64,000 bases of DNA from Minisyncoccia bacterium. GTDB lineage: Bacteria; Patescibacteriota; Minisyncoccia; Phycocordibacterales; UBA918. The notes under the pieces were generated by a model. That model worked only from the letters and a program-made list of their open reading frames with translations, did not search any database and had not been told where the DNA came from. Where the stretch lies: positions 79,872 to 143,871 of the forward strand of contig JBGSPE010000005.1 in NCBI GenBank assembly GCA_041738755.1, read 5' to 3'. Below are positions 1 to 42,236 of the stretch, one piece after another. The stretch's first letter is position 1. Every line of letters begins with the position of its first letter. Made by a program: the position numbers and the translations under genes.

Positions 1-3000
1 TTCACGTTGGGGTGGATATGCAGATACATTCCCAGTCGGGGGTTATACAACTGAAATCGATGTCTATCTCGACATGGCGTTAGCTGACGGTTCTGATAAA
101 GGATTTGATTTCTCTTCAGCTGTGAACAGTACCGACATCAATACTCATCGTCGAGACTTTATATTTCATCTAGAAACTAATGCCTCTAACCCAGGTACTT
201 GGTTAGTTAATGTAAGTAACAACGCCCCAGGTAATCCCTCAGCTTCAGGAGATTCTGGAGTTATTGATGAAACTGGCTGGTATACGCTCCAGGCTTATTT
301 CCATGACAATGGCTCAGGAGTGCTTGAGGTGACAATGAATGTTATCGATAGATCTACTGATTCAGTTGTCTTCACTAAGAACCGTTCAGATGCCTCAGAC
401 ATAATCGGAACTACCGTAGGAGGAAATAGATACGGCTGGTTTACTGGTCAACGGTATGAAGTTGGAGATTTGGCAATTGATAACGCTGCGTTGTACCTTG
501 GTTCTCCAGTACAACGAGACTGTGAATCTGATATTGTCGCAGATACAACAAAACCTATAGGAACGATTGATTCTCCGGAAGATAATTCAGTTGTAGGTTC
601 GAGTTTTAGTGTTAATGGTACAGCATTCGATGGTGAGAGTGGTCTAGCTGAGGTGCTTTACAGAGTAAATGAAATTGACGCAATTGGAGGTTTGTTTGTA
701 GCAAATGTAATCTCTGGTACAGCATCTGGAACCGAAACGTGGTCATATGCTGTGAATGGACTAAGTGAAGGATTTTATCGTGTTCGTGCTGAAGTCATCG
801 ATAATGCAGGAAATATCCGTTTTCTCCACCATGACGTTGAGGTAGATACTACTAAGCCAACTGTAACGATTACTTCACCGTCTAATCAAGCTGTACTAGA
901 TAACGTTCCTTTTACTGTAACGGGTACTGCAAGTGATGCAAAGACAGGTATTAAGGAAGTAAAATATACCGTAACAAATATAACGGGTATCGGAGGTACG
1001 TTTGTTGATCTAATCGCATCAAGTACTGCGACTGGTAGGGAAAATTGGTCATTTGGGGTCCCGGCACTTGAAAATGGATTCTATCGATTAAAAGTCCAAG
1101 CTTTTGATGAAGTTGGAAATTGGCGATATGAATTTCATGATATTGAAGTCAAAGGTACTCGAGCGTTCATTAGCGTGATTAATCCTGCTGATGGGTTTAT
1201 TGCATACGAAGATTTTGAAATTACCGTAAATGCAACTGATGGCTTTGGCCTTGGACAAGTCGTAATTAATCTCAAAGATGAGGATGGCGACAACTTAGCA
1301 CCATGTCTCAATGTTCAGGCTGGTGGAGTGACTGACTTCACTGCGAGTTGTACAGTTGATGTTGATTCGTTAGAGCCAGGCATTTATGGCTTTCGTACCA
1401 ATGCTCGAGATCTTGAAGGAAATATCAGTAATACGGTCTCACAAACTTTTGAGGTTCGAGAATTACCAGTAGCATCACTCACTATCACCGCACCAACTAC
1501 TGATGGTGCTACTGTTGCAGACGCTGGTATCTTTACAGCTGAGTACATCGACAACGATTTGACGGCAGATAGCTTCCAGTGGGCTATTCGAGCAGGTACC
1601 TGTGAACGAGGTCAAGGAACTATCGCTGGAAACGTTGACGGGTTCGATGATGAGTCAACTTTTGTTGGTACTACCTTCACTGCACAATTCGATGCAACTG
1701 AACTAGAAGATGGTGAATACTGTTTTGTGGTAAATCCACGTGAGCAAGCCGGTGAGCAAGATTTGCGCGCAACCCGAACGTTTGTCGTTGAAACACCGTT
1801 ACTTACTTGTGAAATTACCAGTGATACAGGTACACTTATTATTGAAAATAATGAATACGCTGTAGAAACCTACGAGCACCGAAATTGGACAGCGTTGATT
1901 CCTGGAGCAACATGGGTGTGGGAAACCTTCTACGTTGAAGACCCAACAGTGAATACTACCCGTACCTTTACTGAGACCTTTGTGGTAAATGGCATTGATA
2001 CAGCTACGCTTGATGTTGCGGCTGATAACGGCTACCAACTCTTTGTGAATGACCAGCTCGTACAAGATCGTCGATCAATCGAGAACAACTTCCAAACACA
2101 TACCCAAAAGACATTCGATATTGCTGAATTCTTAGTTGACGGTGAAAATACCTTTACTATTGAAGTAACCAATAAGGGTGTTCAAAATGCAAATGCTCTT
2201 CAAAATCCAGCAGGAGTACTTTACAAGCTTGTTGTAAGCGCAGAAACAGCGTGTGAAATTACCACAGAACCAGCTGACGATACTGCACCGACTATTACCG
2301 TAAAAGAAGGTTCTGCCGGAGGCCCAACTGAGTTTACAGAGGTAAGCTTCGCACTCTTCGATGCGGGAGATATCGATAAACTAACACTCAATGGTGTTGA
2401 AAAGGATTTAACAAACAATCCGTATTCTGACTTAAACTTTGTGACACCAGGACAGTTTGGAGCTGTGTTGGGAACAAATACACTTGTTGTATTTGACGCA
2501 ACTGGCAATAGTACTACGTTTATCTTTACGTTAATTGAAGAAACGACTGAAAATCCTGAAGGTCCAGGAGACGGTGATCCAGAAACACCAACTGAAGGAG
2601 AACCCCCAATTGAACCGCCAATAACTACACCTGGTACACCAGAACCAGAAAGTGATAATAACAGTGGTGGAAATTCATCAGGAACATTGATTCCAAGTTT
2701 AGCGCAAGCTGACTTCCAACCGCTTGTATTGGGAGCTTCGACTGGACAATGTGGCATGTTGATTACTGACTATCTCCGAATGGGAATTGAGAATGACCCA
2801 AATCAAGTTCGATGGTTGCAATTCTTCCTCTTCGGACAAGGATACTTTGATGTGACCGTAAATGGTGAATTCGACGCTGCCACTGACGCTGCTGTTCGAG
2901 CCTTTCAAGAAAAGCACCGAGCTGACATCTTGGACCCTTGGGTAACAAACGGCATCTTGACCGTGAGTAATCCAACTGGTTGGGTATACCAACTTACTCG

Positions 3001-3058
3001 GTACAAGATTAACAACATTATCTGTCCTGGAAGCGAACCAATGCCTAGTCTTATTTAA
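1..3058 (+). CDS. 5'-partial large secreted surface protein with tandem Ig-like (Big-type) domains carrying DxxGN motifs and a C-terminal PG_binding_1-like peptidoglycan-binding domain
   Basis: The reading frame is open from nt 2 with no upstream stop, so the gene continues 5' of the window. Ig-like repeats contain EGFYRVRAEVIDNAGN, NGFYRLKVQAFDEVGN and PGIYGFRTNARDLEGN. The C-terminus (VRWLQFFLFGQGYF...NGEFDAATDAAVRAFQEKH) matches the PG_binding_1 pattern. A strong terminator follows. Confidence 0.6.
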   Translation, partial: SRWGGYADTFPVGGYTTEIDVYLDMALADGSDKGFDFSSAVNSTDINTHRRDFIFHLETNASNPGTWLVNVSNNAPGNPSASGDSGVIDETGWYTLQAYFHDNGSGVLEVTMNVIDRSTDSVVFTKNRSDASDIIGTTVGGNRYGWFTGQRYEVGDLAIDNAALYLGSPVQRDCESDIVADTTKPIGTIDSPEDNSVVGSSFSVNGTAFDGESGLAEVLYRVNEIDAIGGLFVANVISGTASGTETWSYAVNGLSEGFYRVRAEVIDNAGNIRFLHHDVEVDTTKPTVTITSPSNQAVLDNVPFTVTGTASDAKTGIKEVKYTVTNITGIGGTFVDLIASSTATGRENWSFGVPALENGFYRLKVQAFDEVGNWRYEFHDIEVKGTRAFISVINPADGFIAYEDFEITVNATDGFGLGQVVINLKDEDGDNLAPCLNVQAGGVTDFTASCTVDVDSLEPGIYGFRTNARDLEGNISNTVSQTFEVRELPVASLTITAPTTDGATVADAGIFTAEYIDNDLTADSFQWAIRAGTCERGQGTIAGNVDGFDDESTFVGTTFTAQFDATELEDGEYCFVVNPREQAGEQDLRATRTFVVETPLLTCEITSDTGTLIIENNEYAVETYEHRNWTALIPGATWVWETFYVEDPTVNTTRTFTETFVVNGIDTATLDVAADNGYQLFVNDQLVQDRRSIENNFQTHTQKTFDIAEFLVDGENTFTIEVTNKGVQNANALQNPAGVLYKLVVSAETACEITTEPADDTAPTITVKEGSAGGPTEFTEVSFALFDAGDIDKLTLNGVEKDLTNNPYSDLNFVTPGQFGAVLGTNTLVVFDATGNSTTFIFTLIEETTENPEGPGDGDPETPTEGEPPIEPPITTPGTPEPESDNNSGGNSSGTLIPSLAQADFQPLVLGASTGQCGMLITDYLRMGIENDPNQVRWLQFFLFGQGYFDVTVNGEFDAATDAAVRAFQEKHRADILDPWVTNGILTVSNPTGWVYQLTRYKINNIICPGSEPMPSLI

Positions 3059-3073
3059 AGAGCAGGGAGGCCA

Positions 3074-3115
3074 GAAAGGGCTGAAACGCAGAGCGTTTCA
3101 GCCCTTTCTTAATTT
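3074..3115 (+). terminator. Intrinsic terminator with a 16-bp perfect stem (3074-3089 / 3093-3108), a 3-nt loop and a T-run
   Basis: gaaagggctgaaacgc-aga-gcgtttcagccctttc followed by ttaattttt, directly after the stop at 3058. Confidence 0.8.
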
Positions 3116-3185
3116 TTACCCTCTTTCAAGAGAGAAGATAAGTCAGCCTGAGTAAATCCATTATTTGGCAGTTCACGGCAAAAGC

Positions 3186-3215
3186 TTGACAAAATGGTAA
3201 ATTATAGCTTAAAAT
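3186..3215 (+). promoter_or_regulatory. Sigma70-like promoter: TTGACA (3186-3191), 18-bp spacer, TAAAAT (3210-3215). The ATG at 3224 makes the transcript nearly leaderless.
   Basis: Read directly from the sequence; the -10 element ends 8 nt before the ATG at 3224. Confidence 0.4.
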
Positions 3216-3223
3216 AGCGATAT

Positions 3224-4354
3224 ATGAATCCTACCGTACCCCGAGAAAAAGCTCTCGACTTGTTACAAAAGGTATCACTCACCCTCATGTCTGTTTTGGT
3301 GCTTATTACCTTTGTGGCAGCAAATCTTCAAGCTGCCTTGTGGCAATCTTCACAATGGCTCGTTTCGACCGTGCTTCCAGCGGTAGTCGTTGAACTGACA
3401 AATGAGGAGCGAGGTGAAAATAACGTTGGACCCCTTAAACGAAATGCTACGCTTGATGCTGCAGCAAAGCTCAAAGCTGAGCACATGGCCAAAAACCAAT
3501 ACTTTGCACACTTTGCCCCAGATGGTACTACACCATGGTTTTGGTTTAAACAGGCTGGATATACCTATGCGCACGCAGGAGAAAATCTAGCGATTCACTT
3601 TACCGACTCGTCCGAGGTCGTTGATGCTTGGATGAATTCTCCGACGCACCGCGAGAACATCGTGAATGGAAAATATACTGAGATTGGTGTAGGTACCGCC
3701 AAAGGTAAATTTGATGGGTACAATACCGTGTATGTCGTACAGTTGTTTGGTACACCGGCTGTAGCACCGACGCCAACACGAGTGGTTACTCCAGCTCCAG
3801 CGACTCCAGCCCCACAAGTCGCGATTGCTACGCCTCCACCGGCTGAAGTGACACCAGTGCCTGAAGAAGAATCAGTCCTGGCGGCAGAGACACCAACTCC
3901 AACTCCTCCGGCTCGGGAAGTTGAAGCTGAAGAAGAGGGTGTTGCAGTAGCTGAAGCTGCACCAACCAGTGCACCGACAACCACCGTTTCAAGTACGCCG
4001 GTAGCTGCACCAATAGCTCCTCCAGAGCGACCGATTGTTACTGAGGATACGTTGGTATTAGAAAGCAGTATGATTGCGACTTCTTCGGGATTAGCAGTTG
4101 CGTCTGTGACTGAAACACTTGAAACAGCAACTGCTGGGACACTTTCAGGTCTCGCTACGAAGCCAAATGCTGTCCTGCAGATAACCTATACAATTCTCGG
4201 ATCTGTCGTCGTTTTACTCCTTGTAGCCTCTATCGCCTTAGAAGTACGACGTAAGCATATTCCACAGGTAATTTATGGTGGAGGCTTACTCATAGTGATG
4301 CTTGGTCTGTGGTTCTTCCACTCGTATATTACCGCCGGAGCGGTTATTATGTAG
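3224..4354 (+). CDS. Secreted CAP/SCP (YkwD-like) domain protein with a Pro/Thr/Ala-rich linker and a C-terminal TM anchor
   Basis: N-terminal signal anchor. CAP-domain motifs are AEHMAKNQYFAH, ENLA and WMNSPTHRENI. A PT-rich region (TPAPATPAPQVAIATPPPAEVTPVPEE) and a C-terminal hydrophobic segment follow. Confidence 0.7.
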   Translation: MNPTVPREKALDLLQKVSLTLMSVLVLITFVAANLQAALWQSSQWLVSTVLPAVVVELTNEERGENNVGPLKRNATLDAAAKLKAEHMAKNQYFAHFAPDGTTPWFWFKQAGYTYAHAGENLAIHFTDSSEVVDAWMNSPTHRENIVNGKYTEIGVGTAKGKFDGYNTVYVVQLFGTPAVAPTPTRVVTPAPATPAPQVAIATPPPAEVTPVPEEESVLAAETPTPTPPAREVEAEEEGVAVAEAAPTSAPTTTVSSTPVAAPIAPPERPIVTEDTLVLESSMIATSSGLAVASVTETLETATAGTLSGLATKPNAVLQITYTILGSVVVLLLVASIALEVRRKHIPQVIYGGGLLIVMLGLWFFHSYITAGAVIM

Positions 4355-4358
4355 TGAC

Positions 4359-4787
4359 ATGAAAGTCACCCATATTAGTCCGGTAAAAATCACCACAGCG
4401 CTTGAAGCACCTCTATATAGCTCACAACCAGCGGCTGGTTTTCCGGCCCCTGGTGATGACTTGGTTGAACGACCACTTGATTTGAATGATTTACTAATCG
4501 AGAACCCAACTGCTACGTTTTTTGTCCGGGTGAGTGGCGACTCGATGGAGGGTGCGAAGATTTTTGCTGGCGATATTCTGGTGGTTGATAGGGGATTGAC
4601 ACCAAGCTCAGGTAGTATTGTAGTGGCTGCGGTCTATGGTGAATTAGTCGTTAAGCGACTGCAAAAAACCAATAAAGGAATGGTCTTAGCTTCAGAGAAC
4701 CCTGACTATGAACCGATTATCGTCAATGAAGCGGAAGATTGTTACATTTGGGGCGTAGTAACAGGCAGTGCTCGTATTTTCACGTAA
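4359..4787 (+). CDS. umuD: UmuD-like S24 LexA-family self-cleaving peptidase (mutagenesis accessory protein). The start is taken at ATG 4359 rather than the ORF-track 4302.
   Basis: Contains an Ala-Gly cleavage site (QPAAGFPAPGDD), the GDSMEG serine motif and VVKRL lysine typical of the S24 catalytic dyad. It is too short for a LexA HTH. It lies upstream of a umuC homolog. Confidence 0.7.
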   Translation: MKVTHISPVKITTALEAPLYSSQPAAGFPAPGDDLVERPLDLNDLLIENPTATFFVRVSGDSMEGAKIFAGDILVVDRGLTPSSGSIVVAAVYGELVVKRLQKTNKGMVLASENPDYEPIIVNEAEDCYIWGVVTGSARIFT

Positions 4788-5996: not shown

Positions 5997-6530
5997 TTTT
6001 TCCTTCAGTATCTCACCTAAAAAGTACGTCTCGAGTTCCTCGTAGACGTGCTTTTTGTATGTATCAGCTGCCGTAATAGCTTCAGTGAACGAAACAAATC
6101 GATAGTCTGAAGCCTCAACTTCGGTAGCATTCTTTAAATTTATAACCGAGTCTGGGGCAAGCTCAAGGAAATACCAACGATGGGCTTGGCCTAATCGAGG
6201 TTTGGTGGCGTCATCTACCGTATTGGTATCTTGGTAGACGGTCCATTTCGGATAGAGTGTAGTCGATGTAAAATCACGTTTCTCTAGTCCATTTTCTTCT
6301 TTGAGTTCTCGCCAGAGAGTCGTTTCAATATCTTCACCAAGGTCGATGCCACCTTGTTGAAATTGCCACACGCCGATGGGGTTTGTTGCTCGCTCAAACA
6401 GAGCTACCTCGCCAGCTTGGTTATAAATGACGGTCCCGACGCCGGCTCGAAAAAAACGGGTACTCACTGTCGTTGGCATAGGCCAGTACCATAGCATATT
6501 TATTGGTATACTTACTATGATATGAAGCAC
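5988..6530 (-). CDS. NUDIX hydrolase. The true start is probably an internal Met near 6497 or 6479.
   Basis: Nudix box GGIDLGEDIETTLWRELKEENGL matches GX5EX7REUXEEXGU. It is the only convincing minus-strand gene in the window. It converges on the GH18 gene and its annotated start would overlap umuC. Confidence 0.7.
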   Translation of the reverse strand: MLHIIVSIPINMLWYWPMPTTVSTRFFRAGVGTVIYNQAGEVALFERATNPIGVWQFQQGGIDLGEDIETTLWRELKEENGLEKRDFTSTTLYPKWTVYQDTNTVDDATKPRLGQAHRWYFLELAPDSVINLKNATEVEASDYRFVSFTEAITAADTYKKHVYEELETYFLGEILKEKLQ

Positions 6531-7778
6531 GATTGGATTGGAGTACTCGATTGTAATAATTTCTTTGTTTCATGCGAACGGCTGTTTCGACCTGACTTAA
6601 AAGGGAAGCCGGTGATTGTTCTCTCATCAAATGATGGTTGTATCGTGGCCCGCTCACAGGAGATAAAGGACAATAATATTCCCATGGGTGTCCCATATTT
6701 TCAGGTAAAGGACAATCTTACAGCCTTAAAGACAACATGTTTTTCTTCTAACCTCACACTCTACCGAGATATCTCAAGACGTGTCTTTGAGGCCATGAGA
6801 GAGGAGTTATCTATAATTGAAGAGTATTCAATTGATGAAGCTTTCTTTACGTTGAAAATGTTGACCGAGGAAGAAGTAACCTCGGTCGCCCAGATGTTAA
6901 AAGACAAAGTAGAGCAACGCATCGGTATTCCAGTTTCCATTGGTCTTGGTCCTTCAAAGACAATTGCAAAGTATGCCAATGACCGGGCCAAAAAGACAAC
7001 TGGAGTCGCTGTGTTCAATAAACTCACCTGGCTTAAAACTGCTCCTAACATTCAGCTTGGAGCTATTTGGGGAGTGGGGCTCAAAACGTCCCATCGCTTC
7101 CGCGACCACCAGTTATTTTCTGTTGCAGACTTTCTTGCCGTTGATAGTAGTCGGTGCCAAGCATTGTTCGGAGTGATGGGTATGCGTCTGCGTACTGAAT
7201 TAAGTGGCAATCCAGTTTTGGATACTATGAGTTCTACACCACAAAAAAGCATTGTCAGCTCTCGGTCCTTCAGAGCTTCTTCAAGTGATAAGTCTATTCT
7301 CAAAGACGCTCTGTCGTACCATGTGTCAGAAATTGCCGCTGAGTTACGGACTTTACGACAAAAGGCTGGTTATATAAGAATATTCATATTGCCTAGCAGA
7401 CACGGGGATTTTGTTCTACACGGCGCTTCAGCTGAAGCGGTGTTGGATGTGCCCCTGCAGGATACGTTAGCCTTGCTTCAGGTTGCACATCGGTTGCTTG
7501 AAACTATTTTTAAAGATGATGTACCGTACCAAAAGGTGGGTGTAGCTGTTGGTTCGTTTGTACCAGAAACGGTTGAGCAATTGGATCTGTTTGCGACACC
7601 TACGGTATCGTCTACCAAGGCCTTAATGAACGTGGTTGATACCCTTAATCGTTTGTTTGGGCACGAAACAATTAAGCTTGGGAGTCATTTGCGCGGTGGG
7701 GAATGGAGAGCAAAAGCTGAGTTACGGTCACCAGCATATACCACCAAGTGGAGTGACCTTCAGATAGTAAAAGCGTAA
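6522..7778 (+). CDS. umuC: Y-family error-prone DNA polymerase, UmuC-like
   Basis: The N-terminus VLDCNNFFVSCERLFRPDLKGKPVIVLSSNDGCIVARS and C-terminus SPAYTTKWSDLQIVKA closely parallel E. coli UmuC (VFRPDLWGKPVVVLSNNDGCVIAR ... SPRYTTRSSDLLRVK). Confidence 0.85.
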   Translation: MKHDWIGVLDCNNFFVSCERLFRPDLKGKPVIVLSSNDGCIVARSQEIKDNNIPMGVPYFQVKDNLTALKTTCFSSNLTLYRDISRRVFEAMREELSIIEEYSIDEAFFTLKMLTEEEVTSVAQMLKDKVEQRIGIPVSIGLGPSKTIAKYANDRAKKTTGVAVFNKLTWLKTAPNIQLGAIWGVGLKTSHRFRDHQLFSVADFLAVDSSRCQALFGVMGMRLRTELSGNPVLDTMSSTPQKSIVSSRSFRASSSDKSILKDALSYHVSEIAAELRTLRQKAGYIRIFILPSRHGDFVLHGASAEAVLDVPLQDTLALLQVAHRLLETIFKDDVPYQKVGVAVGSFVPETVEQLDLFATPTVSSTKALMNVVDTLNRLFGHETIKLGSHLRGGEWRAKAELRSPAYTTKWSDLQIVKA

Positions 7779-8095: not shown

Positions 8096-9172
8096 ATGTT
8101 CGCAAATCCAACAAATGTTGGCATTTCGCAACGGGTGGTCGCGACACTTGTTGCATGTGCTGTGGTACTTTCCTCAATCGGAATGTACGCAACTGCACAA
8201 GCAGCTAACTTAACAGAAATTAGCAATACCTTGTCTGACTCTAACCTTAGTGTCGCTTCATCACATACGATTGCATTTACCATTCCAACTGGTTCAACGC
8301 TTGTGGGAACACAAGATGTTGCTATCACATTCCCGTCAGGATTTACTGGCATCGCTGCTAACGTAGTGAGCGGGGACGTGACAGTGACAGTTGATGGAAC
8401 TCCAGACGCAGTCGGTACTTTCAGTGCCGTCGGTCAAGTCATTACGTTTGACGGAGTTGCAGCTACCGCTGGCCAGGAAGTAATCGTCGCGATTGCAGAT
8501 GGAAATATTACTAACCCAGGTACTGCTGGTTCCTACGAATTTGTAGTGACAACCGAAGCTGCTGATACTGGTAGAACTCGAGTTGCTATCATCGACGACG
8601 TGTTGGTGACAGCAATCGTTAACACTACCTTTGACTTCACCATCACCGGTCTCGCTACTTCAACTGCAGTCAATGGTACATCTACCACTGGTTCTACTTC
8701 GCCAACAGCAATTCCTTTCGGAACATTGGTGGCTAACCAAATCAAGACACTTGCGCAACGTCTCAATGTATCAACAAACGCCCGAAACGGCTTCGTGGTT
8801 ACCGTTGAGCAAGACAGTGACTTGCAATCAGCTACAGGTGCTGTTATCGATAGTTTCACAAACGGAACCTACGTTAACACTCCAGTTTCTTGGGCTGCTC
8901 CAACCAATAACGTGAACTTAGAAAACACGTGGGGTCACTGGGGTCTTACCTCAGCTGACGCAGACTTAAACGGTGACGAATTCGGTTCAGCCCTCTTCGT
9001 GGCTGCAAGTACTACTCCTCGAGAAGTATTTTCACACGATGGTCCATCTGACGGTACAACCGCTAATATCGGTGAAACCCAAGTTGGTTACCAGATTCAA
9101 ATCACGCCACTTCAAGAAGCGGCTGATGACTACAACACGACCTTGACCTACATCGCAACTCCTACCTTCTAA
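8096..9172 (+). CDS. Secreted surface protein with a shared N-terminal head domain and a WxL-like C-terminal domain (family A)
   Basis: Signal peptide present. The N-terminal pattern SD.LSDS...HTI.F...G..I.ITFP.GF is shared with the products of 10864 and 46865. The C-terminal region carries FGTL, GHWGL (a W-x-L) and a terminal YNTTLTYIATPTF, resembling the WxL domain (G-W-x-L ... L-T-W-T-L-x-x-P). Confidence 0.55.
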   Translation: MFANPTNVGISQRVVATLVACAVVLSSIGMYATAQAANLTEISNTLSDSNLSVASSHTIAFTIPTGSTLVGTQDVAITFPSGFTGIAANVVSGDVTVTVDGTPDAVGTFSAVGQVITFDGVAATAGQEVIVAIADGNITNPGTAGSYEFVVTTEAADTGRTRVAIIDDVLVTAIVNTTFDFTITGLATSTAVNGTSTTGSTSPTAIPFGTLVANQIKTLAQRLNVSTNARNGFVVTVEQDSDLQSATGAVIDSFTNGTYVNTPVSWAAPTNNVNLENTWGHWGLTSADADLNGDEFGSALFVAASTTPREVFSHDGPSDGTTANIGETQVGYQIQITPLQEAADDYNTTLTYIATPTF

Positions 9173-9185
9173 GGTATCGAGTAAG

Positions 9186-9226
9186 AACACAAAACTCGTA
9201 CATATTATATGTACGAGTTTTGTGTT
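9186..9226 (+). terminator. 20-bp perfect inverted repeat (hairpin) downstream of gene 8096-9172; likely a bidirectional terminator
   Basis: aacacaaaactcgtacatat / atatgtacgagttttgtgtt with a 1-nt centre; a U-rich sequence follows. Confidence 0.6.
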
Positions 9227-9297
9227 ATGTGTATACCCTACACCGGTGAACAATTCTTCAGTGGTATACTAGCCCTATTACACGTTATTGCTTATTT

Positions 9298-10383
9298 ATG
9301 CTACGCACATCGTCGGTCAGTGACTCATTATCTTTTGTAACTATACTACTGTCGCTATTGTTTATTTTTTCTATCCTTGTACCTTCAGTAGCGTCAGCAC
9401 AATCAATTGGTGTCAGTATTACACCAGCTCAGATTGAAGAAACCCTTGATCCTGGTACGACGCGACAGTTTACGTTTACCTTGCAGAATCTTAATCCAAC
9501 TGAGCAAACCTTTTACTTCTTCACTCGAAATATTTCTGGCGTACGAGACGGTGGCACACCAATATTTGCTGAGAATAACCAAGAAGTGACAGGGTATGAA
9601 TTGGCTGATTGGATTACGCTCGAGGCTACTTCTGCAGTAGTTCCAGGTGGTGGTAGTCAAGAGGTAAATTTCACCATGGTAGTACCGACTGATGCTTCTC
9701 CTGGAAGTCACTTTGGTGGGGTGTTTATATCGGTTGATCCGCCAGAGATCCAAAATAGTGGTGCGGCGGTTGGGTATCAAGTGGCAAATATTATCAGTAT
9801 TCGAGTTTCTGGAGATGCTAATAACTCAGCAAACATCAGACAATTTTCAACTGAAAGATATTTTCATGGTTCACAAAATGTAGATTTCTCAGTCAGAATT
9901 GAAAATGCTGGTAATGTTTTGGTGCGACCATCAGGACCGCTTGAGATTTATAACATGCTGGGACAACAAGTTGATTCAATTACGTTCAATGAAAGTCAAA
10001 ACGCTGTATTTCCTGCTGATACTCGAGAATATAATTTCTCATGGACTGGAGAAGGGGTGGGTTTTGGTCGTTATGAGGCTGTCTTGAGTGCGGTGTATGG
10101 CGATGAGGGTGCGAAGAAGACTATGTCCAGCACTGTTTCGTTCTGGATTTTACCAATGAATATTATCCTTCCGGCTTTAGGGATTTTAGCTTTTATCCTC
10201 CTTATAACCTTCGTATTCGTTCGCTTATATATCAAACGAACACTGGCAGGACTTTCTTCAGGGGGAACGAGGTTGGTACGAAAGCGAAAGCGAAATAGCT
10301 CATCAGCGACCCTATTACTTATTGTTTCGCTACTGACTGTCTCCTCACTATTCCTTATCGTACTCTTGGTGTTGTTTGCCTAG
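9298..10383 (+). CDS. TM-anchored surface protein, DUF916/DUF3324-like (CscA-like) or CARDB-like beta-sandwich (family B)
   Basis: Signal peptide, a roughly 270-aa ecto-region with V.N.GN motifs (FSVRIENAGNVLVRPSGPLEIYN), a GRYEAVLSAVYG motif, then a C-terminal TM plus a basic tail (RKRKRNSS). Paralogs are at 44299, 60520 and 61508. Confidence 0.5.
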   Translation: MLRTSSVSDSLSFVTILLSLLFIFSILVPSVASAQSIGVSITPAQIEETLDPGTTRQFTFTLQNLNPTEQTFYFFTRNISGVRDGGTPIFAENNQEVTGYELADWITLEATSAVVPGGGSQEVNFTMVVPTDASPGSHFGGVFISVDPPEIQNSGAAVGYQVANIISIRVSGDANNSANIRQFSTERYFHGSQNVDFSVRIENAGNVLVRPSGPLEIYNMLGQQVDSITFNESQNAVFPADTREYNFSWTGEGVGFGRYEAVLSAVYGDEGAKKTMSSTVSFWILPMNIILPALGILAFILLITFVFVRLYIKRTLAGLSSGGTRLVRKRKRNSSSATLLLIVSLLTVSSLFLIVLLVLFA

Positions 10384-10407
10384 CTTGTCAGGTTATACTA
10401 TATATGT

Positions 10408-10806
10408 ATGACAAGTACATCTGTATATCATCGAATTCTTAGAATTTCCGCAGTCGTGGTAGCGTTTGTATTGGTTTTTGAAAGCGGCCTGATTTCAGAG
10501 ACTACGGCACAATTATCACAAACTACTGAACTCTATCTTGCTAATGCAGTTGGAATGAGCGCCTCGGTAGAACCAACCGAGCTAAATCAGATGACAGCTC
10601 AACTGACCGCTCAGAAGACTCTTCTTGACCAGCGTGAGGCAGCTTTACGGGAGCGAGAAATAAATATCGAGTTTGGTAGTGGAGGAACAGACTACTCGAC
10701 GTATGTGCTGGCAAGTGTCTTATTTATCTTACTCGTACTGATACTACTCAACTACACACTGGATTATTTCCGGTACCGTGACCAAATGACGCTTCAGACT
10801 AACTAG
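10408..10806 (+). CDS. Small membrane protein with an N-terminal signal anchor, a coiled-coil and a C-terminal TM
   Basis: Assigned from hydrophobicity and a QKTLLDQREAALRERE coiled-coil segment; there is no homology clue. Confidence 0.4.
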   Translation: MTSTSVYHRILRISAVVVAFVLVFESGLISETTAQLSQTTELYLANAVGMSASVEPTELNQMTAQLTAQKTLLDQREAALREREINIEFGSGGTDYSTYVLASVLFILLVLILLNYTLDYFRYRDQMTLQTN

Positions 10807-10863: not shown

Positions 10864-12774
10864 ATGAGTGTTTCTAAGCATGCAATTATCGTAGTGCTGC
10901 TAACTGTGGTTGGATTAACGGCGGTGCTACTTTCTTTTCTGCCGCAGTTTGTTAGTGCGCTTAATGTCCAGCGTTATAGTGACCTTATTAGTGACTCTGC
11001 ACCGACAGCTTCATCTAATCACACACTTCGGTTTGTGGTTGACACCGACGTAAATCCTGGAGGTGTGATAGAAATTACTCCACCTGAAGGGTTTGAAACG
11101 GTAGCTGATATTGGCTTTGATGTCAGGAATGTAGAGCTAACGGTTGATGGTACGACAAGAGTTGCGGGAGCAAGTGCGGGACCGGGAGTAGATCAGGTAG
11201 AGATTACACCGGGAACTCCGGGACAAATTCGCTACACCCTGGCACCTGACTCTGGTATTGGTAGCGGCGCAGAGATAGAGTTAAAAATTGGTAATCATAC
11301 CAGCAATGCAATCGGTCCCTCGTTAGAATTTAGTAGTACGACTGGTACCACTACCATCCCGGGAGATGTTGAGCCAATTATCAATAGTGCTGACACTGGT
11401 ACACATGAAGTAAAAATGGAGATTTACGATGGCGGACTCGGCTTGGTTGCCAGTGCGGGATTTCTGATTGCTGTCGTTGACCGAGTAGAAATTGCTGGTG
11501 TTGATACAACTGAAGAAGTGCCGCCATTTCGGTTTAATGGAGCGCCGACCTCTACGATTGGAGGAACTACACTCAGCGTTGAATTATCACTTGAAACTGA
11601 TGAGTTTGCGGTCTGTAGATTTTCAACAACCCCAGGTGTCAGTTACTTTGCAATGCCCAATCAGTTTGCTAATACAGGGATAATCTTCCATACCGTAGTG
11701 GTGGCTGTAACTCCGGCTACCTTCTATACCTTCTACGTTCGATGTATTGATGATGAAGGAAACTTCAATGTTGACGATTTCGAGATTGCGTTTGCTGTTA
11801 ATGAGACGCCAACCGGTGAGTCAAATGAAGAAGGTAACGTAGATGGTGACGGAACGGGGACTGGTAATCAAGGTAGTGGATCAGGTGGTGGCGGTGGTGG
11901 AACTTCCGGTTCGTCTGATGGTGAAGCACCAACGACGGGTGGAACTTCAGGTGGCGGTGGTTCAGGAGGTGGTGGCGGTGGTGGATCTGGAGGTACACGA
12001 GGAAACAGTGGCGGTGGAGGATTTGAATCAACTGACGCTCCGTTTCAAAGCGGAGATGGGCGAGTCGTTATCACCGGTTTGGCGTTCCCAAATAGTAACG
12101 TCACGTTTCTGGTCGATGGGAAAATTGCACAGTCTGTTCGGGCGGGAGGCAGTGGTGCCTATTCAGTGACGCTCGATGAGATTGCTCGCGGCGCGTATAC
12201 CTTCGGCGTGTATGCTACCGGAGCTGATGATGTGAAATCTTCCACATTTAGTACATCATTTACTGTCACTGGCGCCCGTACTTCGGCACTTTCTAATATT
12301 AATATTCCACCTTCAATTAGAGCTACTCCCGATCCGGTTGATCCTGGACAAGTGCTAACGCTTTCAGGATATGCAATTGCAAACTCAACCCTCACTATTC
12401 AAAATAGTCGTCTTCGTACATCTACCTCAGCAAGTGTACAAGCGACGGCGGATGGAAGTGGACGCTGGTCAACTACACTACAAACAAATAATTTTACGAA
12501 TGGCACATATCAAGTTCGAGCTCGGGCAGCGCAAGAGGGCGGAGCAACAACAAATTTTTCTGAATATACATTTTATGGCGTAGGTGAAGCAGCTGATGTT
12601 CCTATCAATGCCGATCTTAATACTGACGGAAGAATCAACTTGACTGACTTTTCTATTTTGCTGTTCTGGTGGAATAGTAACGGTGGAGATTCAGACCCAC
12701 CAGCTGATATTAACCGTGATGGAAGAGTCACGTTGACTGACTTTTCCATCCTACTGTTTAACTGGACTGGGTAA
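10864..12774 (+). CDS. Secreted protein with the family-A head domain, a Gly-rich linker, Ig-like domains and a C-terminal type-I dockerin
   Basis: The N-terminus is homologous to the products of 8096 and 46865. The C-terminus is a duplicated dockerin segment, DLNTDGRINLTDFSILLFWW ... DINRDGRVTLTDFSILLFNW, whose D1/N3/D5/G6/D12 residues match the dockerin Ca-binding loop. Confidence 0.75.
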   Translation: MSVSKHAIIVVLLTVVGLTAVLLSFLPQFVSALNVQRYSDLISDSAPTASSNHTLRFVVDTDVNPGGVIEITPPEGFETVADIGFDVRNVELTVDGTTRVAGASAGPGVDQVEITPGTPGQIRYTLAPDSGIGSGAEIELKIGNHTSNAIGPSLEFSSTTGTTTIPGDVEPIINSADTGTHEVKMEIYDGGLGLVASAGFLIAVVDRVEIAGVDTTEEVPPFRFNGAPTSTIGGTTLSVELSLETDEFAVCRFSTTPGVSYFAMPNQFANTGIIFHTVVVAVTPATFYTFYVRCIDDEGNFNVDDFEIAFAVNETPTGESNEEGNVDGDGTGTGNQGSGSGGGGGGTSGSSDGEAPTTGGTSGGGGSGGGGGGGSGGTRGNSGGGGFESTDAPFQSGDGRVVITGLAFPNSNVTFLVDGKIAQSVRAGGSGAYSVTLDEIARGAYTFGVYATGADDVKSSTFSTSFTVTGARTSALSNINIPPSIRATPDPVDPGQVLTLSGYAIANSTLTIQNSRLRTSTSASVQATADGSGRWSTTLQTNNFTNGTYQVRARAAQEGGATTNFSEYTFYGVGEAADVPINADLNTDGRINLTDFSILLFWWNSNGGDSDPPADINRDGRVTLTDFSILLFNWTG

Positions 12775-13356: not shown

Positions 13357-14898
13357 ATGTCAAAATTTTTCCATACTACAAACTTAAGCCTCTCCTTAAA
13401 GTTTTTTGCGATTGTCTTGGTATGGTTCTGTGTGTCGGTCTCATTTACATATGCAGCAGATCTTTCACTTTCACCAAGTAGTGGTTCGTATTCAGCTGGA
13501 CAGACATTTACCACAACTGTCCGAGTTTCACCCAATGGAGCTAATGTTAATGCAGTTGAAGCATCACTCCGGTTTAATCCAGCGGTGTTGTCAGTCGTGA
13601 GTGTGAGTAAAGGTCCGGCATTTTCATTGTGGACGACTGAGCCAACATTTTCAAACAGTGCCGGGACAATCCAATTTGGCGGTGGTAGCCCAGCTCCATT
13701 TTCAGCCGCTTCAAATCTTTTAACTATTACATTTAGAACGGTAGCTCCTGGTTCGGGCACCGTGTCATTCACCGGCTCATCGGTATTAGCCGCCGATGGT
13801 CGAGGGACTGATGTGTTTGAAAATGCAGCACCAGCTACTTTTGCAGTAGCGGCTGGAGCGGCACCAACACCTACCCCAACTCCTACTCCTACTCCTACAC
13901 CAACACCTCCTGCCGAAACGGGTAATAGTGGAGATGAGGCAATTATTTTCGGAGACCCACCACGACCACCAGAAATTGGTTCACCAATCTTCCTTGACCC
14001 AAACACCTGGTACAGCGACACAGAGGGAGTGTTTACGTGGACGCTACCATTTGATGTAAGTGCTCTGGCTGTGGAGATTACTGACAATGCTGAAAATCGT
14101 CCTGAGTTGAATCGAGCTGCAATTGTTGACCCACCGACTGAAGAATTTTTCATTACAAAAGATTTGATAAAAGATGGTGTTCAGTATATTAGTATCAATT
14201 ATCAGAATCAGGTTGGATGGGGCGCGCCAACGAATCGGAAGCTTCAGGTTGACACAACCGCTCCTGAACCATTTGCTATCAATGTACGAGCTGGTACATC
14301 TCCGAGCTCATTCCCACTCCTTAACTTTGAGGCGCTCGATGTTACTTCAGGAATTAACTTCTATGAAATGACGGTAGCGGACCGAGAACCAATTCGAATC
14401 ACTCCAGATGAAGCAAAGCTTGGGTACTTACTGACAGATCTTGAAGACGGTACCTATACAGTAAAGGTGGTAGCAACTGACATGGCTGGTAATATTCGCG
14501 AAAGTAGTGTCGCGGTACTTATTACAGCCGGTTGGATAAAACCGCTCGAGACACTTGAGGAAGGATCGATCTTTGATTTCCTCACTGCCAAAAATCTTCT
14601 CATCTTCTTCCTCTTCGTTGTGATTGCCTTGCAGATGGTATACATGTGGTACACGAGAAAGCATACAAGGGAGCGAGAAGAAAAATTACGTCGAGAAACG
14701 CGTGAAATTCAAGATCAGATGGAGAAAATATTCTCAGCGCTCCGTGATGAAATTTATGACCAAATTATCTCTATCACCAAACGTAAACGACTTTCACCAA
14801 AAGAAAAAGAAGCCATCGAAGGTCTAACACAAGCACTCGAAGTGTCTGAGACCTTGATAGAAAAGGAAATCAATGATGTGAAAACGATTTTGAAGTAA
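13357..14898 (+). CDS. Membrane-anchored cohesin-domain protein with a PT linker, an Ig-like domain, a TM and a cytoplasmic coiled-coil tail
   Basis: The cohesin-like domain spans about nt 13453-13866 (LSLSPSSGSYSAGQTFTTTVRVSPNGANVNAVEASLRFNPAVLSVVSV...). It is followed by a (TP)n linker, an Ig-like DGTYTVKVVATDMAGN segment, a TM (LLIFFLFVVIALQMVYMW) and a coiled coil ending IEKEINDVKTILK. Confidence 0.65.
   Translation: MSKFFHTTNLSLSLKFFAIVLVWFCVSVSFTYAADLSLSPSSGSYSAGQTFTTTVRVSPNGANVNAVEASLRFNPAVLSVVSVSKGPAFSLWTTEPTFSNSAGTIQFGGGSPAPFSAASNLLTITFRTVAPGSGTVSFTGSSVLAADGRGTDVFENAAPATFAVAAGAAPTPTPTPTPTPTPTPPAETGNSGDEAIIFGDPPRPPEIGSPIFLDPNTWYSDTEGVFTWTLPFDVSALAVEITDNAENRPELNRAAIVDPPTEEFFITKDLIKDGVQYISINYQNQVGWGAPTNRKLQVDTTAPEPFAINVRAGTSPSSFPLLNFEALDVTSGINFYEMTVADREPIRITPDEAKLGYLLTDLEDGTYTVKVVATDMAGNIRESSVAVLITAGWIKPLETLEEGSIFDFLTAKNLLIFFLFVVIALQMVYMWYTRKHTREREEKLRRETREIQDQMEKIFSALRDEIYDQIISITKRKRLSPKEKEAIEGLTQALEVSETLIEKEINDVKTILK
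13864..13911 (+). repeat. Coding microsatellite (ACNCCN)n encoding a (Thr-Pro)n linker
   Basis: acacctaccccaactcctactcctactcctacaccaacacctcc. Confidence 0.8.
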
Positions 14899-41011: not shown

Positions 41012-41021
41012 TGATTAGTAT

Positions 41022-42236
41022 ATGAGAATACAAGATCTAGCCCAGCTTTCAACCAGAATGTTTAAAACGAATCCACTCCGTACGTGGCTGACAATTTTAG
41101 GTATGGGAGTAGGTACAGGGGCGGTGGTGGTTTTGGTGGGGCTAGGGTTTGGCTTGCAGCAGATTATTCTTGAACAGATTGTGTTTGGAGAAACACTGCT
41201 TTCTTTGGGAGTTTCTTCAACTGGAGCGCAAGGTCTCTCACTGACGCCTGATACGGTTACCCAGTTTGAAAGTAATCCGGCGGTTCTTGATGCTGCGCCG
41301 CTCGCTCGCTTCCCAGCACTTATAACCTATAAGGGATTAACGGGAAATGTATTCGTACAGGGGGTTGAGCCGCCCTACCTACGGTACGCAGGAGTGACAG
41401 CTGAAGTTGGAGAGGTCTTCTTGGAAGAGGATGCTGGTGATACTAGTAGCATTATGTTGTCGCCAGCCGTTCTTAAGCTGTTCGGGATTGAGGATACAGA
41501 AATTGCAAATTTTATTGGAGAGCGCGTTTCGATTCGTCTGCTTGTACCGGCTGATGATGGAACAGAAAATGTTAACGAGATTATTATTGATAAAGAATAC
41601 ACCGTAAAGGGAGTCACCAAAGAACAAGGGGTGTTAAACGCCATGATGATGCTTCCAGAATTACGTAATTACGTTGGTATTGAAGAATACGAACGAATTC
41701 AAGTACGGGTTGATACCAATGAAAACTTGCCGCTCGTTGAAGAGCAGTTAATTGAAGAAGGCTATCGTGTGACGGCGCTTTCAAAGACGGTTGAACAAGC
41801 ATCACAAATTTTCCAAGGAATTCAGGCCGTGCTGGCGACGTTTGGCGGTATAGCGTTACTCGTATCTGCGATTGGTATGTTCAACACCATGACTGTGACA
41901 TTGCTTGAGCGAACGAAAGAGATTGGAATTATGCGTACCATTGGTGCGTCACCAAACGACGTTAAGTACCTCTTCGTATCTGAGTCAGTAGTTGTAGGGT
42001 TTATGGGGGGAGTGACTGGTATCGCTATGGGGGTCACCTTTGGAGTAGCGATAAATATTTTCCTCAACGTGCTGGCTGGGCAGTTTGGTGGACAGGCAGT
42101 ATCACTCTTTTCATTTCCCCTTAACTTTTTGCTCTTCATCGCAATCTTTTCGGCTGGGGTAGGGTACCTGACGGGTATTTTTCCAGCCAGACGAGCTTCA
42201 ACCCTCAATCCACTTGATGCGATTAGGTATGAATAA
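41022..42236 (+). CDS. FtsX/MacB-type ABC permease with TM1, a large extracytoplasmic domain and three C-terminal TMs
   Basis: The topology, and C-terminal TM helices with conserved Gly residues, are typical of the FtsX-like permease family. It is adjacent to the ABC ATPase, 11 nt downstream. Confidence 0.7.
   Translation: MRIQDLAQLSTRMFKTNPLRTWLTILGMGVGTGAVVVLVGLGFGLQQIILEQIVFGETLLSLGVSSTGAQGLSLTPDTVTQFESNPAVLDAAPLARFPALITYKGLTGNVFVQGVEPPYLRYAGVTAEVGEVFLEEDAGDTSSIMLSPAVLKLFGIEDTEIANFIGERVSIRLLVPADDGTENVNEIIIDKEYTVKGVTKEQGVLNAMMMLPELRNYVGIEEYERIQVRVDTNENLPLVEEQLIEEGYRVTALSKTVEQASQIFQGIQAVLATFGGIALLVSAIGMFNTMTVTLLERTKEIGIMRTIGASPNDVKYLFVSESVVVGFMGGVTGIAMGVTFGVAINIFLNVLAGQFGGQAVSLFSFPLNFLLFIAIFSAGVGYLTGIFPARRASTLNPLDAIRYE

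Follow-up and report, generated by a model that had tools for sequence, protein, structure and literature searches.

The genes analyzed here probably encode a divergent relative of the Pam pilus, which would make them Pam-like pilus loci of a bacterium in the Parcubacteria group (CPR). They lie in a 64,000-nt stretch of DNA (the window) from a genome of the Patescibacteria, Parcubacteria group, and a single strand of the window encodes a dense set of Ig-like, cohesin, dockerin, and giant surface proteins. The original prediction had read these genes as csc/WxL-type cell-surface clusters, but the CPR Pam pilus, published in 2026, is the closer known system. Pam pili have been known since 2026 only, from a single cultivated Saccharibacterium, where their subunits rank with the cell's most abundant proteins and mediate host contact (bioRxiv 10.64898/2026.03.03.709456). 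A Pam-like reading would give a large uncultivated lineage candidate filaments for host attachment, along with a 2050-aa candidate adhesin, and would assign a function to more than 1,000 clusters of "hypothetical proteins."

Two paired gene families recur in the window

The ORFs of the original prediction are present where it had placed them. The relevant features, referred to below by their first nucleotide, are as follows.

8096-9172, plus strand: family A subunit, putative major Pam-like pilin, 358 aa (ORF and translation)
9186-9226, plus strand: terminator-like hairpin with a 19-bp stem, just past the family A stop and before the family B gene (RNA fold -30.5 kcal/mol, z -6.8)
9298-10383, plus strand: family B, DUF916/WxLIP-family membrane protein, 361 aa, putative membrane-anchored chaperone and/or anchor (PF06030)
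10408-10806, plus strand: small conserved membrane protein, 132 aa, third gene of the A-B-small protein module (translation; orthologs)
44299-45264, plus strand: divergent family B paralog, 321 aa, one TM segment, basic tail (E 1e-6 to 9298; E 3e-6 to 60520)
46865-48022, plus strand: second family A subunit, 385 aa, three-part layout like 8096 (identity to 8096; NF058581)
48057-48090, plus strand: terminator-like hairpin downstream of 46865-48022 (RNA fold -31 kcal/mol, z -4.6)
54360-60512, plus strand: secreted protein, 2050 aa, candidate tip or accessory adhesin (A-type C-terminal domain at its end)
60520-61551, plus strand: family B paralog, 343 aa, one C-terminal TM segment, acidic tail (E 1e-17 to 9298; E 5e-15 to 61472)
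61472-62767, plus strand: family B paralog, 431 aa from 61472, with an alternative ATG at 61508 (E 1e-43 to 9298; PF06030 above gathering score)

Families A and B are real paired gene families. In the window, family A comprises 8096-9172, 46865-48022, and the C-terminal 170 aa of 54360-60512, and family B comprises 9298-10383, 61472-62767, 60520-61551, and 44299-45264. The paralogy proposed among the A-type sequences holds far beyond chance: 8096 is 43% identical to 46865 (E 5e-76) and 30% identical to the last ~170 aa of the 2050-aa protein (E 7e-13).

Three loci had been proposed to share one gene order. The paired families, the loci, and the small membrane protein expected after 9298 (10408-10806) are all there, but the common order fails at the third locus, which reads B (44299), a dockerin protein (45268), and A (46865); it differs from the first locus because 42326-44206, its supposed A-type gene, has no detectable family A membership (E 0.8-9.9 with two family profiles). 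The 10408 protein consists of an N-terminal TM segment, a conserved YLANxVGxxAxVxPTELNxLTA segment, a coiled coil, and a C-terminal TM segment.

We recovered 80 related loci from 185,579 species-representative genomes. Record titles were CPR or unclassified for 79 of them, the other being titled Candidatus Azotimanducaceae, and named homologs come from Kaiserbacteria, Nomurabacteria, and Parcubacteria. Family B lies directly downstream of A in 60 of 71 species-representative genomes and within 6 kb in 69 of 71. A homolog of 10408 occurs in 62 of the 80 loci, directly after B in about 48 of these, and A, B, and the small TM protein keep this order, in synteny, in a complete Ca. Nomurabacteria genome. 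A hairpin past A was found in every related locus tested (77/77, z<-2) compared with 12.5% of control windows; in Ca. Nomurabacteria it occupies the same place with a different sequence.

These counts bear on the alternative that unrelated Ig-like surface proteins merely cluster in a surface-protein-rich region with no specific A-B interaction. Such clustering would suit the density of Ig-like, cohesin, dockerin, and giant surface proteins on one strand, as well as the weak matches between family B and fn3_5, CARDB, and FixG_C, all generic Ig-like families. The conserved adjacency across species-level genomes argues against it, however, as do the recurrence of A/B pairing at separate loci in the window and the same pairing in Firmicutes and Actinobacteria, where DUF916 genes likewise accompany an upstream secreted beta-protein. 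We give this explanation almost no credence.

Family A has a predicted pilin layout and matches a Pam pilin model

Sequence analysis and prediction mark the family A proteins as Sec-secreted. In 8096, a signal peptide (aa 1-36, cleavage after AQA) is followed by a predicted BslA-like beta-sandwich N-terminal domain (NTD; aa 37-166), a putative linker/donor strand (aa 167-186; V-x-V-T-A-x-V-x-T-x-F-x-F-x-V) in which conserved hydrophobic residues alternate, a spacer, and a predicted truncated-Ig C-terminal domain (CTD; aa 204-358) ending in LTYIATPTF. Conservation across the family is highest in the linker (0.61) and CTD (0.59), compared with 0.44 in the NTD. AlphaFold2 (AF2) modeled the NTD of full-length 8096 with a pLDDT of ~90 and aa 169-202 with ~30; a C-domain-only model (aa 170-358) reached a pLDDT of 96.1 and a pTM of 0.90, with the linker strand placed in cis. 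This placement is expected for donor-strand subunits but would equally fit a non-polymerizing domain. In Foldseek searches, the CTD of 8096 best matched the TasA fiber, then PapE, PapG, Csu, and Fim pilins, and the solved WxL chain 9i25 was absent from the 50-60 best structural matches. Among the 150 best representatives, all except a few have the A-type domain at their C-terminal end, and lengths range from 219 to 1022 aa, compared with up to 2050 aa in the window.

We compared the window proteins with curated NCBIfam models of the Pam system (NF058581 and NF058579). NF058581 (CPR_Pam_pilin_C, "Pam pilus system pilin subunit") matched 8096 (E 3e-5), 46865 (E 2.9e-5), and the A-type CTD of the 2050-aa protein (E 2.2e-7, model positions 3-148 of 148). 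The scores of these three C-domains (24.2, 24.2, and 31.1 bits) fall below the NCBI curated cut-off of 55, so the A-type proteins are not NF058581 members by the NCBI rule. The model nevertheless matches 44 of 73 diverse family A representatives (best E 2.3e-8) and none of the WxL proteins of Enterococcus and Bacillales or WxL-like proteins of Actinobacteria. Family A appears to be a sub-threshold yet recognizable Pam relative, conserved across the Parcubacteria group, which indicates that the curated pilin model under-calls the family. Models of PamT, PamR, and the chaperones gave no significant match to any protein in the window, the PamT model reaching E 0.006 with the 2050-aa protein.

In archaea, SlaA and SlaB form a two-component surface layer of lattice and membrane-anchored stalk. 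A similar arrangement, with A as a 2-D lattice and B as its stalk, would be in keeping with the conservation and tight linkage of the two genes, with the C-terminal membrane anchor of B, and with a terminator of A's own, as for an abundant structural protein. We consider it quite improbable: the fold and profile matches of A are to filament subunits, A is not exceptionally conserved (65% identity, compared with 48-85% for neighbor genes), and S-layer families went unmatched except for 44299 against the PACE-CTERM "putative S-layer protein" model (E 0.0035, far below the cut-off).

By contrast with the Pam match, the proposal that family A consists of WxL-like proteins is not supported. PF13731 (WxL) found no match at E<=1 in 8096 or 46865 and none at E<=0.01 in the 2050-aa protein, and small family A members remained without a match even at E<=10. 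Because PF13731 also misses the genuine large WxL protein of Enterococcus pCREc1, a Pfam miss is weak evidence. In WxL domains the two Trp-x-Leu motifs lie on neighboring strands, and positions W1-8 and W1-6 hold Asp and Arg, respectively (PMC9772566). The A-type domains lack both the Trp-x-Leu pairs and the Asp and Arg of motif 1, the aligned positions reading N-G-F-V-V and L-T-Y-I-A. Of the C-terminal motifs put forward earlier, all three A-type C-termini carry FG(T/S)L as well as the terminal L/I-T/V-Y-I/V-A-x-P-x-F. GHWGL, however, is replaced by SCFGY in the 2050-aa protein, and it is not the first WxL motif, which the profile alignment puts at N-G-F-V-V-T-V (aa 231-237).

Profile-profile comparison of family A with WxL by hhalign gave a probability of 5% (P 0.0073), with an alignment that is collinear over 169 columns when extended. 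The extended alignment to small WxL proteins matches FG, pairs N-G-F-x-V-T-V with G-W-T-L-T, and pairs Y-x-x-T-L-T-Y-I-A-x-P with Y-x-T-x-I-T-W/Y-x-L-x-x-x-P. The observed score of 23.1, compared with 13.2 +/- 2.6 in a column-shuffle null, was reached by 1 of 150 shuffles. For scale, the same WxL profile gave P 1.8e-4 with the large WxL protein of the same operon and P 7.5e-5 with actinobacterial WxL-like proteins; family A against the latter gave P 0.027. The second motif has Tyr in several real small WxL proteins and Phe in the Enterococcus large WxL protein. WxL and Pam may share a deeper kinship.

Family B as a DUF916/WxLIP relative

The family B proteins of the window (321-361 aa, against 320-380 aa in the WxLIP architecture, with 61472 longer at 431 aa) all have a signal peptide and a C-terminal TM segment, and the architecture foreseen for the family was borne out, with x-N-x-G-N and G-R/S-Y-x-A motifs, a signal peptide, an ectodomain of ~270 aa, a C-terminal TM segment, and a basic tail. 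From its sequence, 9298 begins with a signal peptide and continues through two predicted Ig-like domains to a pair of C-terminal TM segments that have a basic loop; aa 130-172 are nearly invariant and include the strand AAVGYQVANIISIRVSG, which ends domain 1.

PF06030 (WxLIP_PGBD) matches 61472-62767 at 29.1 bits, compared with a gathering score of 27.3 (E 1.1e-6), and matches the same stretch of 9298 below threshold, at 19.6 bits (E 1e-3); 44299 has no PF06030 match on its own, only weak ones to CopC/CARDB. At E<=0.01 the model finds 61 of 64 family B members (best E 6.7e-10), and orthologs of 9298 carry it, one being named "DUF916 domain-containing protein" by NCBI. With hhalign, the family B profile aligned, over its length from signal peptide through TM segment, to a genuine DUF916+DUF3324 protein of Enterococcus (92.5% probability, P 5e-7) and also to a Clavibacter DUF916 protein (98%, P 5e-14), and tblastn with 61472 matched annotated DUF916 proteins of Actinobacteria and Enterococcus. 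The second Ig-like domain is of similar size and aligns with that of actinobacterial DUF916 proteins. At the level of sequence, then, family B is a genuine DUF916/WxLIP relative, and the putative helper of the Pam-like loci belongs to the same family (DUF916) as the WxL-cluster helper of lactic acid bacteria.

The DUF916 half of the expected DUF916/DUF3324 likeness is therefore upheld, but the DUF3324 half is not: PF11797 matched 0 of 64 members at E<=0.01, compared with E 3e-39 for an Enterococcus control. The suggestion that these loci extend the system beyond Firmicutes needs qualifying, since DUF916 is already annotated in records of Patescibacteria and Actinobacteria and the Pam pilus is closer. 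No NCBIfam chaperone model matched family B, and scans with PapD-type and usher families gave no significant match, the sole usher match being one family B ortholog at E 0.095. Judged by architecture and position only, the Pam counterparts of family B would be the chaperones and not the PamR tether.

The DUF916 kinship also lends weight to a non-polymeric surface complex of the csc/WxL type, in which a DUF916 protein would hold secreted proteins through a C-terminal WxL-like domain, one helper per cargo and no filament, the variable N-terminal parts serving adhesive or enzymatic functions. Like small and large WxL proteins, the A-type domain sits at the C terminus of both small (219-250 aa) and large (to 1022 aa; here 2050 aa) carriers, and the cohesin and dockerin genes interleaved among the window's surface genes point to modular docking of surface proteins in the host genome. 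The collinear A/small WxL alignment (P 0.007), the Tyr or Phe in the second motif of real WxL proteins, and the Pfam miss of a genuine one add to this. We nonetheless regard such a complex as unlikely, with a small but real chance. Family A has neither the PF13731 match nor the WxL residues, its hhalign probability is low, pilins and TasA-like subunits rather than WxL lead its structural matches, and the Pam pilin model picks out A-type domains and not real WxL proteins. In addition, family B lacks DUF3324, no LPXTG partner was seen (the 10408 protein ends in a TM segment), and the conserved, alternating-hydrophobic linker and the terminator uncoupling A from B are easier to reconcile with a polymerizing major subunit than with a 1:1 complex.

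The A-type C-terminal domain also ends a 2050-aa protein

The A-type CTD forms the last ~170 aa of the 2050-aa protein (nt 59997-60509), and family A profiles matched aa 1880-2050 at E 1e-19 to 4e-29; the rest of the protein has no Pfam domain at E<=0.01. Two family B paralogs are encoded directly behind it, the first (60520) beginning 7 nt past its stop codon, with no hairpin between 54360-60512 and this next gene.

A proposed route of assembly

For the Pam-like pilus, the fold of A, the conservation of its linker, and the analogy to PamA/PamB suggest donor-strand exchange: the linker strand of one A subunit would fill the CTD groove of the next, building a linear filament. Family B may serve as an usher-less membrane-anchored chaperone and/or anchor, its C-terminal helices in the membrane, and could cap the A groove until exchange, probably with the invariant strand ending its first domain. 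The hairpin after each free-standing A gene would fit a major subunit expressed highly relative to its helper. Through the shared C-terminal domain, the 2050-aa protein may act as an adhesin attached to the filament or to B, and the 10408 protein would be a conserved third component.

According to AlphaFold2 modeling by others, a strand of WxLIP would be inserted into the WxL protein it pairs with (PMC10599100). We tentatively propose, as a possibility somewhat on the doubtful side, that DUF916 proteins are the ancient common helper of one usher-less donor-strand system in bacteria with a single membrane, CPR Pam-type pili, Firmicutes csc/WxL clusters, and unannotated actinobacterial WxL-like/DUF916 pairs being diverged versions of it. 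WxL domains would then be incomplete Ig domains of the pilin type, with the missing strand supplied by WxLIP or by another WxL protein, and WxL proteins might form strand-linked chains rather than merely bind peptidoglycan. Should PamC and PamD also be DUF916 proteins, this would provide a testable bridge between the Pam pilus and the WxL clusters, long a puzzle, that encode surface proteins in lactobacilli, enterococci, and Listeria.

Comparison with known systems

TasA-type and other donor-strand fibers (B. subtilis TasA/TapA; archaeal AbpA and 0406 threads; environmental TLP-1 fibrils, PDB 9ikk, PMC11494351) share only ~10% identity with family A and no sequence-level match; they carry the donor strand at the mature N terminus, and no DUF916 partner is described for any of these fibers. 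The window proteins scanned had no match to M73/TasA-family or signal-peptidase domains. Unlike chaperone-usher pili (Pap, Fim, Csu, CS), the loci here have no usher, no outer membrane, a membrane-anchored helper, and no sequence similarity of window proteins to PapD-type families. The A subunit has an extra N-terminal domain compared with chaperone-usher pilins, so its putative donor strand is internal rather than N-terminal.

Firmicutes csc/WxL clusters comprise small and large WxL proteins, a WxLIP (DUF916+DUF3324+TM), and an LPXTG protein (Siezen 2006; Hassan & Williamson 2022-2023, PMC9772566, PMC10599100). They share with our loci a DUF916-family membrane protein in which a pair of Ig-like domains lies between a signal peptide and a C-terminal TM segment; its gene adjoins those of secreted proteins whose interacting beta-domain lies at the extreme C terminus, in small and large carriers alike, and a strand of the helper is predicted to enter the domain of its partner. 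The loci here differ in having no PF13731 or PF11797 match, Phe/Tyr in place of both Trp residues, no Asp-x-Arg, and no LPXTG gene. By definition, a WxL gene cluster contains one or more WxLIP genes and two or more WxL genes, spaced no further than four genes apart (Hassan et al. 2023, PMC10599100), whereas the A and B genes number one each at locus 1, one and two at locus 2, and one each at locus 3.

The Pam system consists of the pilins PamA/PamB, the membrane-anchored chaperones PamC/PamD, and PamT, PamE, and PamR; PamA, PamB, and PamE have a beta-sandwich NTD, a linker strand, and a truncated-Ig CTD, and the chaperones have two domains and a C-terminal TM segment (Troman et al., bioRxiv 2026, 10.64898/2026.03.03.709456). 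Pam pilins are reported there mainly in Saccharimonadia and Microgenomatia, with the Parcubacteria group not mentioned, whereas our host belongs to the latter. Further differences are the family A scores of 24-31 bits, a conserved core of three genes (A-B-small TM protein) instead of a seven-gene pam operon, no PamT or PamR counterpart detected in the window, a pilin CTD also borne by a 2050-aa protein, and a helper that is Pfam DUF916, a link the Pam paper does not mention. Both systems occur in CPR bacteria, to which the Pam system is described as restricted, and have Sec-secreted two-domain subunits with a beta-sandwich NTD, linker strand, and truncated-Ig CTD (here predicted), the linker and CTD being the best-conserved parts in each. 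In both, two-domain helpers (putative here) with a C-terminal TM anchor adjoin the subunit genes, there is neither usher nor outer membrane, and each genome has several pilin paralogs and two helper paralogs. Finally, family A consistently and significantly matches the curated model of the Pam pilin CTD.

Organization of the surface-protein block

Surface-protein genes fill the window as a one-strand block in this Patescibacteria genome, and their closest named homologs come from Candidatus Kaiserbacteria, Nomurabacteria and Parcubacteria, all of the Parcubacteria group. All-against-all BLASTP of the window proteins revealed two paralogous families, the secreted family A and the membrane-protein family B, which lie among the following features.

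4302-4787, S24-peptidase (LexA-like) ORF, a call resting on the Nomurabacteria ortholog
6522-7778, DinB/ImpB-type polymerase
8096-9172, A1, 358-aa secreted protein, first of three genes in 8096-10806
9298-10383, B1, 361 aa, signal peptide and C-terminal membrane segments
10408-10806, S, 132 aa, two membrane segments
10864-12774, 45268-46371 and 51858-52610, secreted dockerin proteins
13357-14898, 49367-51145 and 48343-49401, cohesin or related proteins with a C-terminal TM
15005-38095, single 7696-aa ORF; syntenic 7839-aa ortholog in Ca. Nomurabacteria CP060229 with Pentaxin and DUF2341 matches
39689-42236, MacB-type ABC transporter (ABC_tran; MacB_PCD and FtsX), directly 5' of and adjoining 42326-44206 (secreted, 626 aa), which B paralog 44299 follows

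By BLASTP, A1 is 43% identical to the 46865-48022 product (E 5e-76) and matches the last ~170 aa of the 2050-aa giant protein of 54360-60512 at E 7e-13 (E 1e-19 to 4e-29 with family profiles), and B1 matches 61472-62767 at E 1e-43, 60520-61551 at E 1e-17 and 44299-45264 at E 1e-6. The family motifs listed in the original prediction were found in the sequences, except that GHWGL is not in the giant. The gene order it placed at three loci breaks down at the third, which lacks A-then-B because 42326-44206 is not detectable as family A; at E 0.8-9.9 with family profiles, this protein was ruled out as A-type. Seven nucleotides after the giant's stop codon come two B paralogs (60520 and 61472), whose ORFs overlap by 80 nt (61472-61551); the true start of the 61472 ORF may be the in-frame ATG at 61508, as previously chosen, or a later one.

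Mixed among the A/B genes is a second docking system, in which dockerin proteins are secreted and cohesin proteins are anchored in the membrane, giving this CPR genome a surface display that resembles a cellulosome. The 10864 product has an N-terminal BslA-like domain in common with family A (E 1e-9), and the 7696-aa product lacks the A-type C-terminal domain (CTD) by family profile. The S24-peptidase and polymerase genes sit shortly 5' of the A1-B1-S locus, a synteny shared with Ca. Nomurabacteria.

Conserved linkage and a hairpin after A

The comparison covered 80 loci of species-representative genomes, almost all of them recorded as CPR or unclassified bacteria. Of the 71 loci whose sequence extends far enough, 60 have B directly 3' of A and 69 have it within 6 kb; S directly follows B in most of the 80, and a complete Ca. 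Nomurabacteria genome keeps the gene series A, B, S, dockerin protein, Hsp20, cohesin protein, giant protein. Chance is very unlikely to account for the adjacency of A and B. The A1 stop codon is followed by a strong hairpin (19-bp stem, -30.5 kcal/mol, z -6.8), the 46865 gene also carries a 3' hairpin, and the Nomurabacteria counterpart is a classical terminator; across the family, a hairpin follows A in 77/77 loci, compared with 12.5% of control windows. This arrangement fits an excess of the major subunit over its helper.

Family B proteins are DUF916 proteins

As originally predicted, family B belongs to DUF916, the earlier name of PF06030 (WxLIP_PGBD): 61472-62767 scores above the Pfam gathering score, 9298 matches below threshold on the same stretch, and PF06030 is found at E<=0.01 in 61/64 members. 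An ortholog in public records is named 'DUF916 domain-containing protein [Candidatus Kaiserbacteria bacterium]'. In a tblastn search of plasmid records, Clavibacter and Cellulosimicrobium yielded annotated DUF916 proteins, and Nonomuraea and Embleya yielded matches that carry no annotation; a weak match was a DUF916+DUF3324 protein encoded by the Enterococcus plasmid pCREc1 within a textbook WxL cluster. The family B profile aligned with the pCREc1 WxLIP protein from signal peptide to membrane helix (92.5% probability, P 5e-7) and with the Clavibacter DUF916 protein at 98% probability (P 5e-14). The accompanying assignment to DUF3324 did not survive, with PF11797 matching none of the family B members and matching the Enterococcus control. 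The most invariant family B stretch (aa 130-172) ends in an alternating-hydrophobic strand that closes domain 1. In PapD-type chaperones, the donor strand lies at the end of domain 1, and by analogy the invariant strand would occupy this position. Neither A, B nor the A-domain profile retrieved a relevant match by sequence from the PDB.

Relationship of family A to WxL proteins

Contrary to what had been proposed, family A is not recognizable as WxL at the level of sequence. In Pfam scans (giant at E<=0.01), neither PF13731 nor PF11797 matched any A or B paralog or small family member, and family A lacks both the Trp residues and the Asp/Arg pair by which WxL motifs are defined (PMC9772566). 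The PF13731 result alone is a weak test, because this model also misses, even at E<=10, the WxL domain at the C-terminus of pCREc1's large BspA/LRR protein (L003 6947-11425, Enterococcus sp. CR-Ec1); censuses that rely on Pfam thus count too few large WxL proteins. An HMM of small WxL proteins was uninformative for the same reason, giving no signal in A-type proteins or in the genuine large WxL protein.

Profile comparison by hhalign of 25 PF13731-positive small WxL proteins with 149 diverse A-type CTDs gave a score of 24.7 (P 0.0073, probability 5%), and the extended alignment was collinear (FG/FG; N-G-F-V-V-T-V / G-W-T-L-T; Y-x-x-T-L-T-Y-I-A-x-P / Y-x-T-x-I-T-W/Y-x-L-x-x-x-P). Column shuffling gave a null of 13.2 +/- 2.6 against 23.1 observed, a score reached in 1/150 shuffles. 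For scale, the small-WxL profile matched the large WxL protein of the same operon at P 1.8e-4. Each actinobacterial DUF916 gene (Clavibacter, Nonomuraea, Cellulosimicrobium, Embleya) has a hypothetical or unannotated protein 5' of it (L004 5170-5796; L085 2910-3638; L087 2923-3567; L086 C-terminus of 1270-3633) whose CTD looks WxL-like (VTVTDTR...GW.V...SDF ... Y.STLTLSLF); these matched the small-WxL profile at P 7.5e-5 (62% probability) and family A at P 0.027. GH43/LamG genes adjoin these actinobacterial loci. Given the weak profile scores and missing motif residues, the likeness of family A to WxL is suggestive but unproven; the solved WxL chain 9i25 was not among the listed fold matches of family A, from libraries that may not include it. 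A non-polymeric display complex of WxL type, which the DUF916 partner and the collinear alignment would suit and the absent motif residues would not, is unlikely.

Family A has a predicted pilin-like domain

The profile of the C-terminal 190 aa of family A matched 1385 representative clusters at E<=1e-3, of which 829 reached E<=1e-10; among the best 150 listed, with carriers of 219 to 1022 aa, almost every protein ends with the domain. AlphaFold2 predicted a three-part layout for full-length A1, with a confident BslA-like N-terminal beta-sandwich, a low-confidence stretch (aa 169-202) and the CTD. Because this model gave only generic tandem-Ig adhesin fold matches, we modelled the CTD alone (aa 170-358) from a deeper alignment (pLDDT 96.1, pTM 0.90). 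Foldseek against the PDB placed the TasA fibre on top (E 3.5e-4), followed by PapE, the PapG pilin domain, CupB6, CsuA/B and Fim subunits, suggesting a pilin-like fold. Among solved structures, the A-type CTD comes closest to 9ikk_A (TLP-1b fibril), a subunit of an orphan fibril imaged in 0.22-um-filtered pond water (PMC11494351); at ~10% identity, this is a fold resemblance and no identification.

NCBIfam gave the decisive lead: its model NF058581, 'Pam pilus system pilin subunit', matched all three A-type CTDs (E 3e-5 for A1, 2.9e-5 for 46865 and 2.2e-7 for the giant, whose match spans the entire model and which also touches the PamT model at E 0.006) and 44/73 diverse family A representatives. 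Every family A score lies below the NCBI cut-off of 55 bits, and the matches to the Pam pilin model are consistent but sub-threshold; NF058581 did not match genuine WxL or actinobacterial WxL-like proteins. Between the domains, the linker (aa 167-186) reads V-x-V-T-A-x-V-x-T-x-F/L-x-F-x-V/I, and the commonest residue has a mean frequency of 0.61 in the linker, 0.59 in the CTD and 0.44 in the N-terminal domain (NTD). We dropped the argument that exceptional conservation marks A as a polymer, because its 65% identity to the ortholog of Nomurabacteria does not stand out within the syntenic block (48-85% for neighbours).

We propose a pilus in which A would polymerise through its linker by donor-strand exchange, B, at the membrane, would cap A or hand it over and might also serve as the filament's anchor, and the 2050-aa protein would be mounted through its pilin domain. 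S, kept after B across the family with the pattern YH..LR, TM, YLANxVGxxAxVxPTELNxLTA, coiled coil, TM, probably has some role; speculatively, its conserved extracellular segment might act as a donor strand, and S would then be a minimal tether. A two-component S-layer, for which A and B would supply the components and to which the predicted pilin-like fold lends little, is improbable, more so than the WxL-type complex. The latter and the pilus may be a single phenomenon seen from two sides. AlphaFold2 modelling by Hassan et al. predicts that a WxLIP strand completes the WxL sandwich (PMC10599100), which is the principle of chaperone-pilin complementation.

Comparison with the Pam pilus

Troman et al. 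determined the structures of two filaments from Ca. Mycosynbacter amalyticus, a Saccharibacterium (bioRxiv 2026, doi 10.64898/2026.03.03.709456). PamA and PamB, their subunits, each consist of an N-terminal beta-sandwich of nine strands, one linker strand and a truncated Ig-like CTD that takes up the neighbouring subunit's linker, exactly the layout predicted for family A. Linker and CTD groove are the most conserved parts of the Pam pilins, the 2nd and 9th most abundant proteins, and in family A the linker and CTD are likewise more conserved than the NTD. [quoted passage not shown] None of the terms DUF916, WxL, Parcubacteria and Paceibacteria appears in that study, and the preprint and supplement give no PamC, PamD or PamR sequence or domain annotation. 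In the literature searched, DUF916 is not connected with Pam pili, nor do the best-ranked matches join Patescibacteria with DUF916 or WxL.

Pam homologs were reported only in CPR, mainly in Saccharimonadia and Microgenomatia (doi 10.64898/2026.03.03.709456). This kind of system has become known very recently, and that of the window, whose members are annotated 'hypothetical' (some B orthologs being named DUF916), is a divergent variant. It differs in belonging to another CPR lineage, in scoring below curated thresholds, and in combining a compact A-B-S core with a giant pilin-domain protein.
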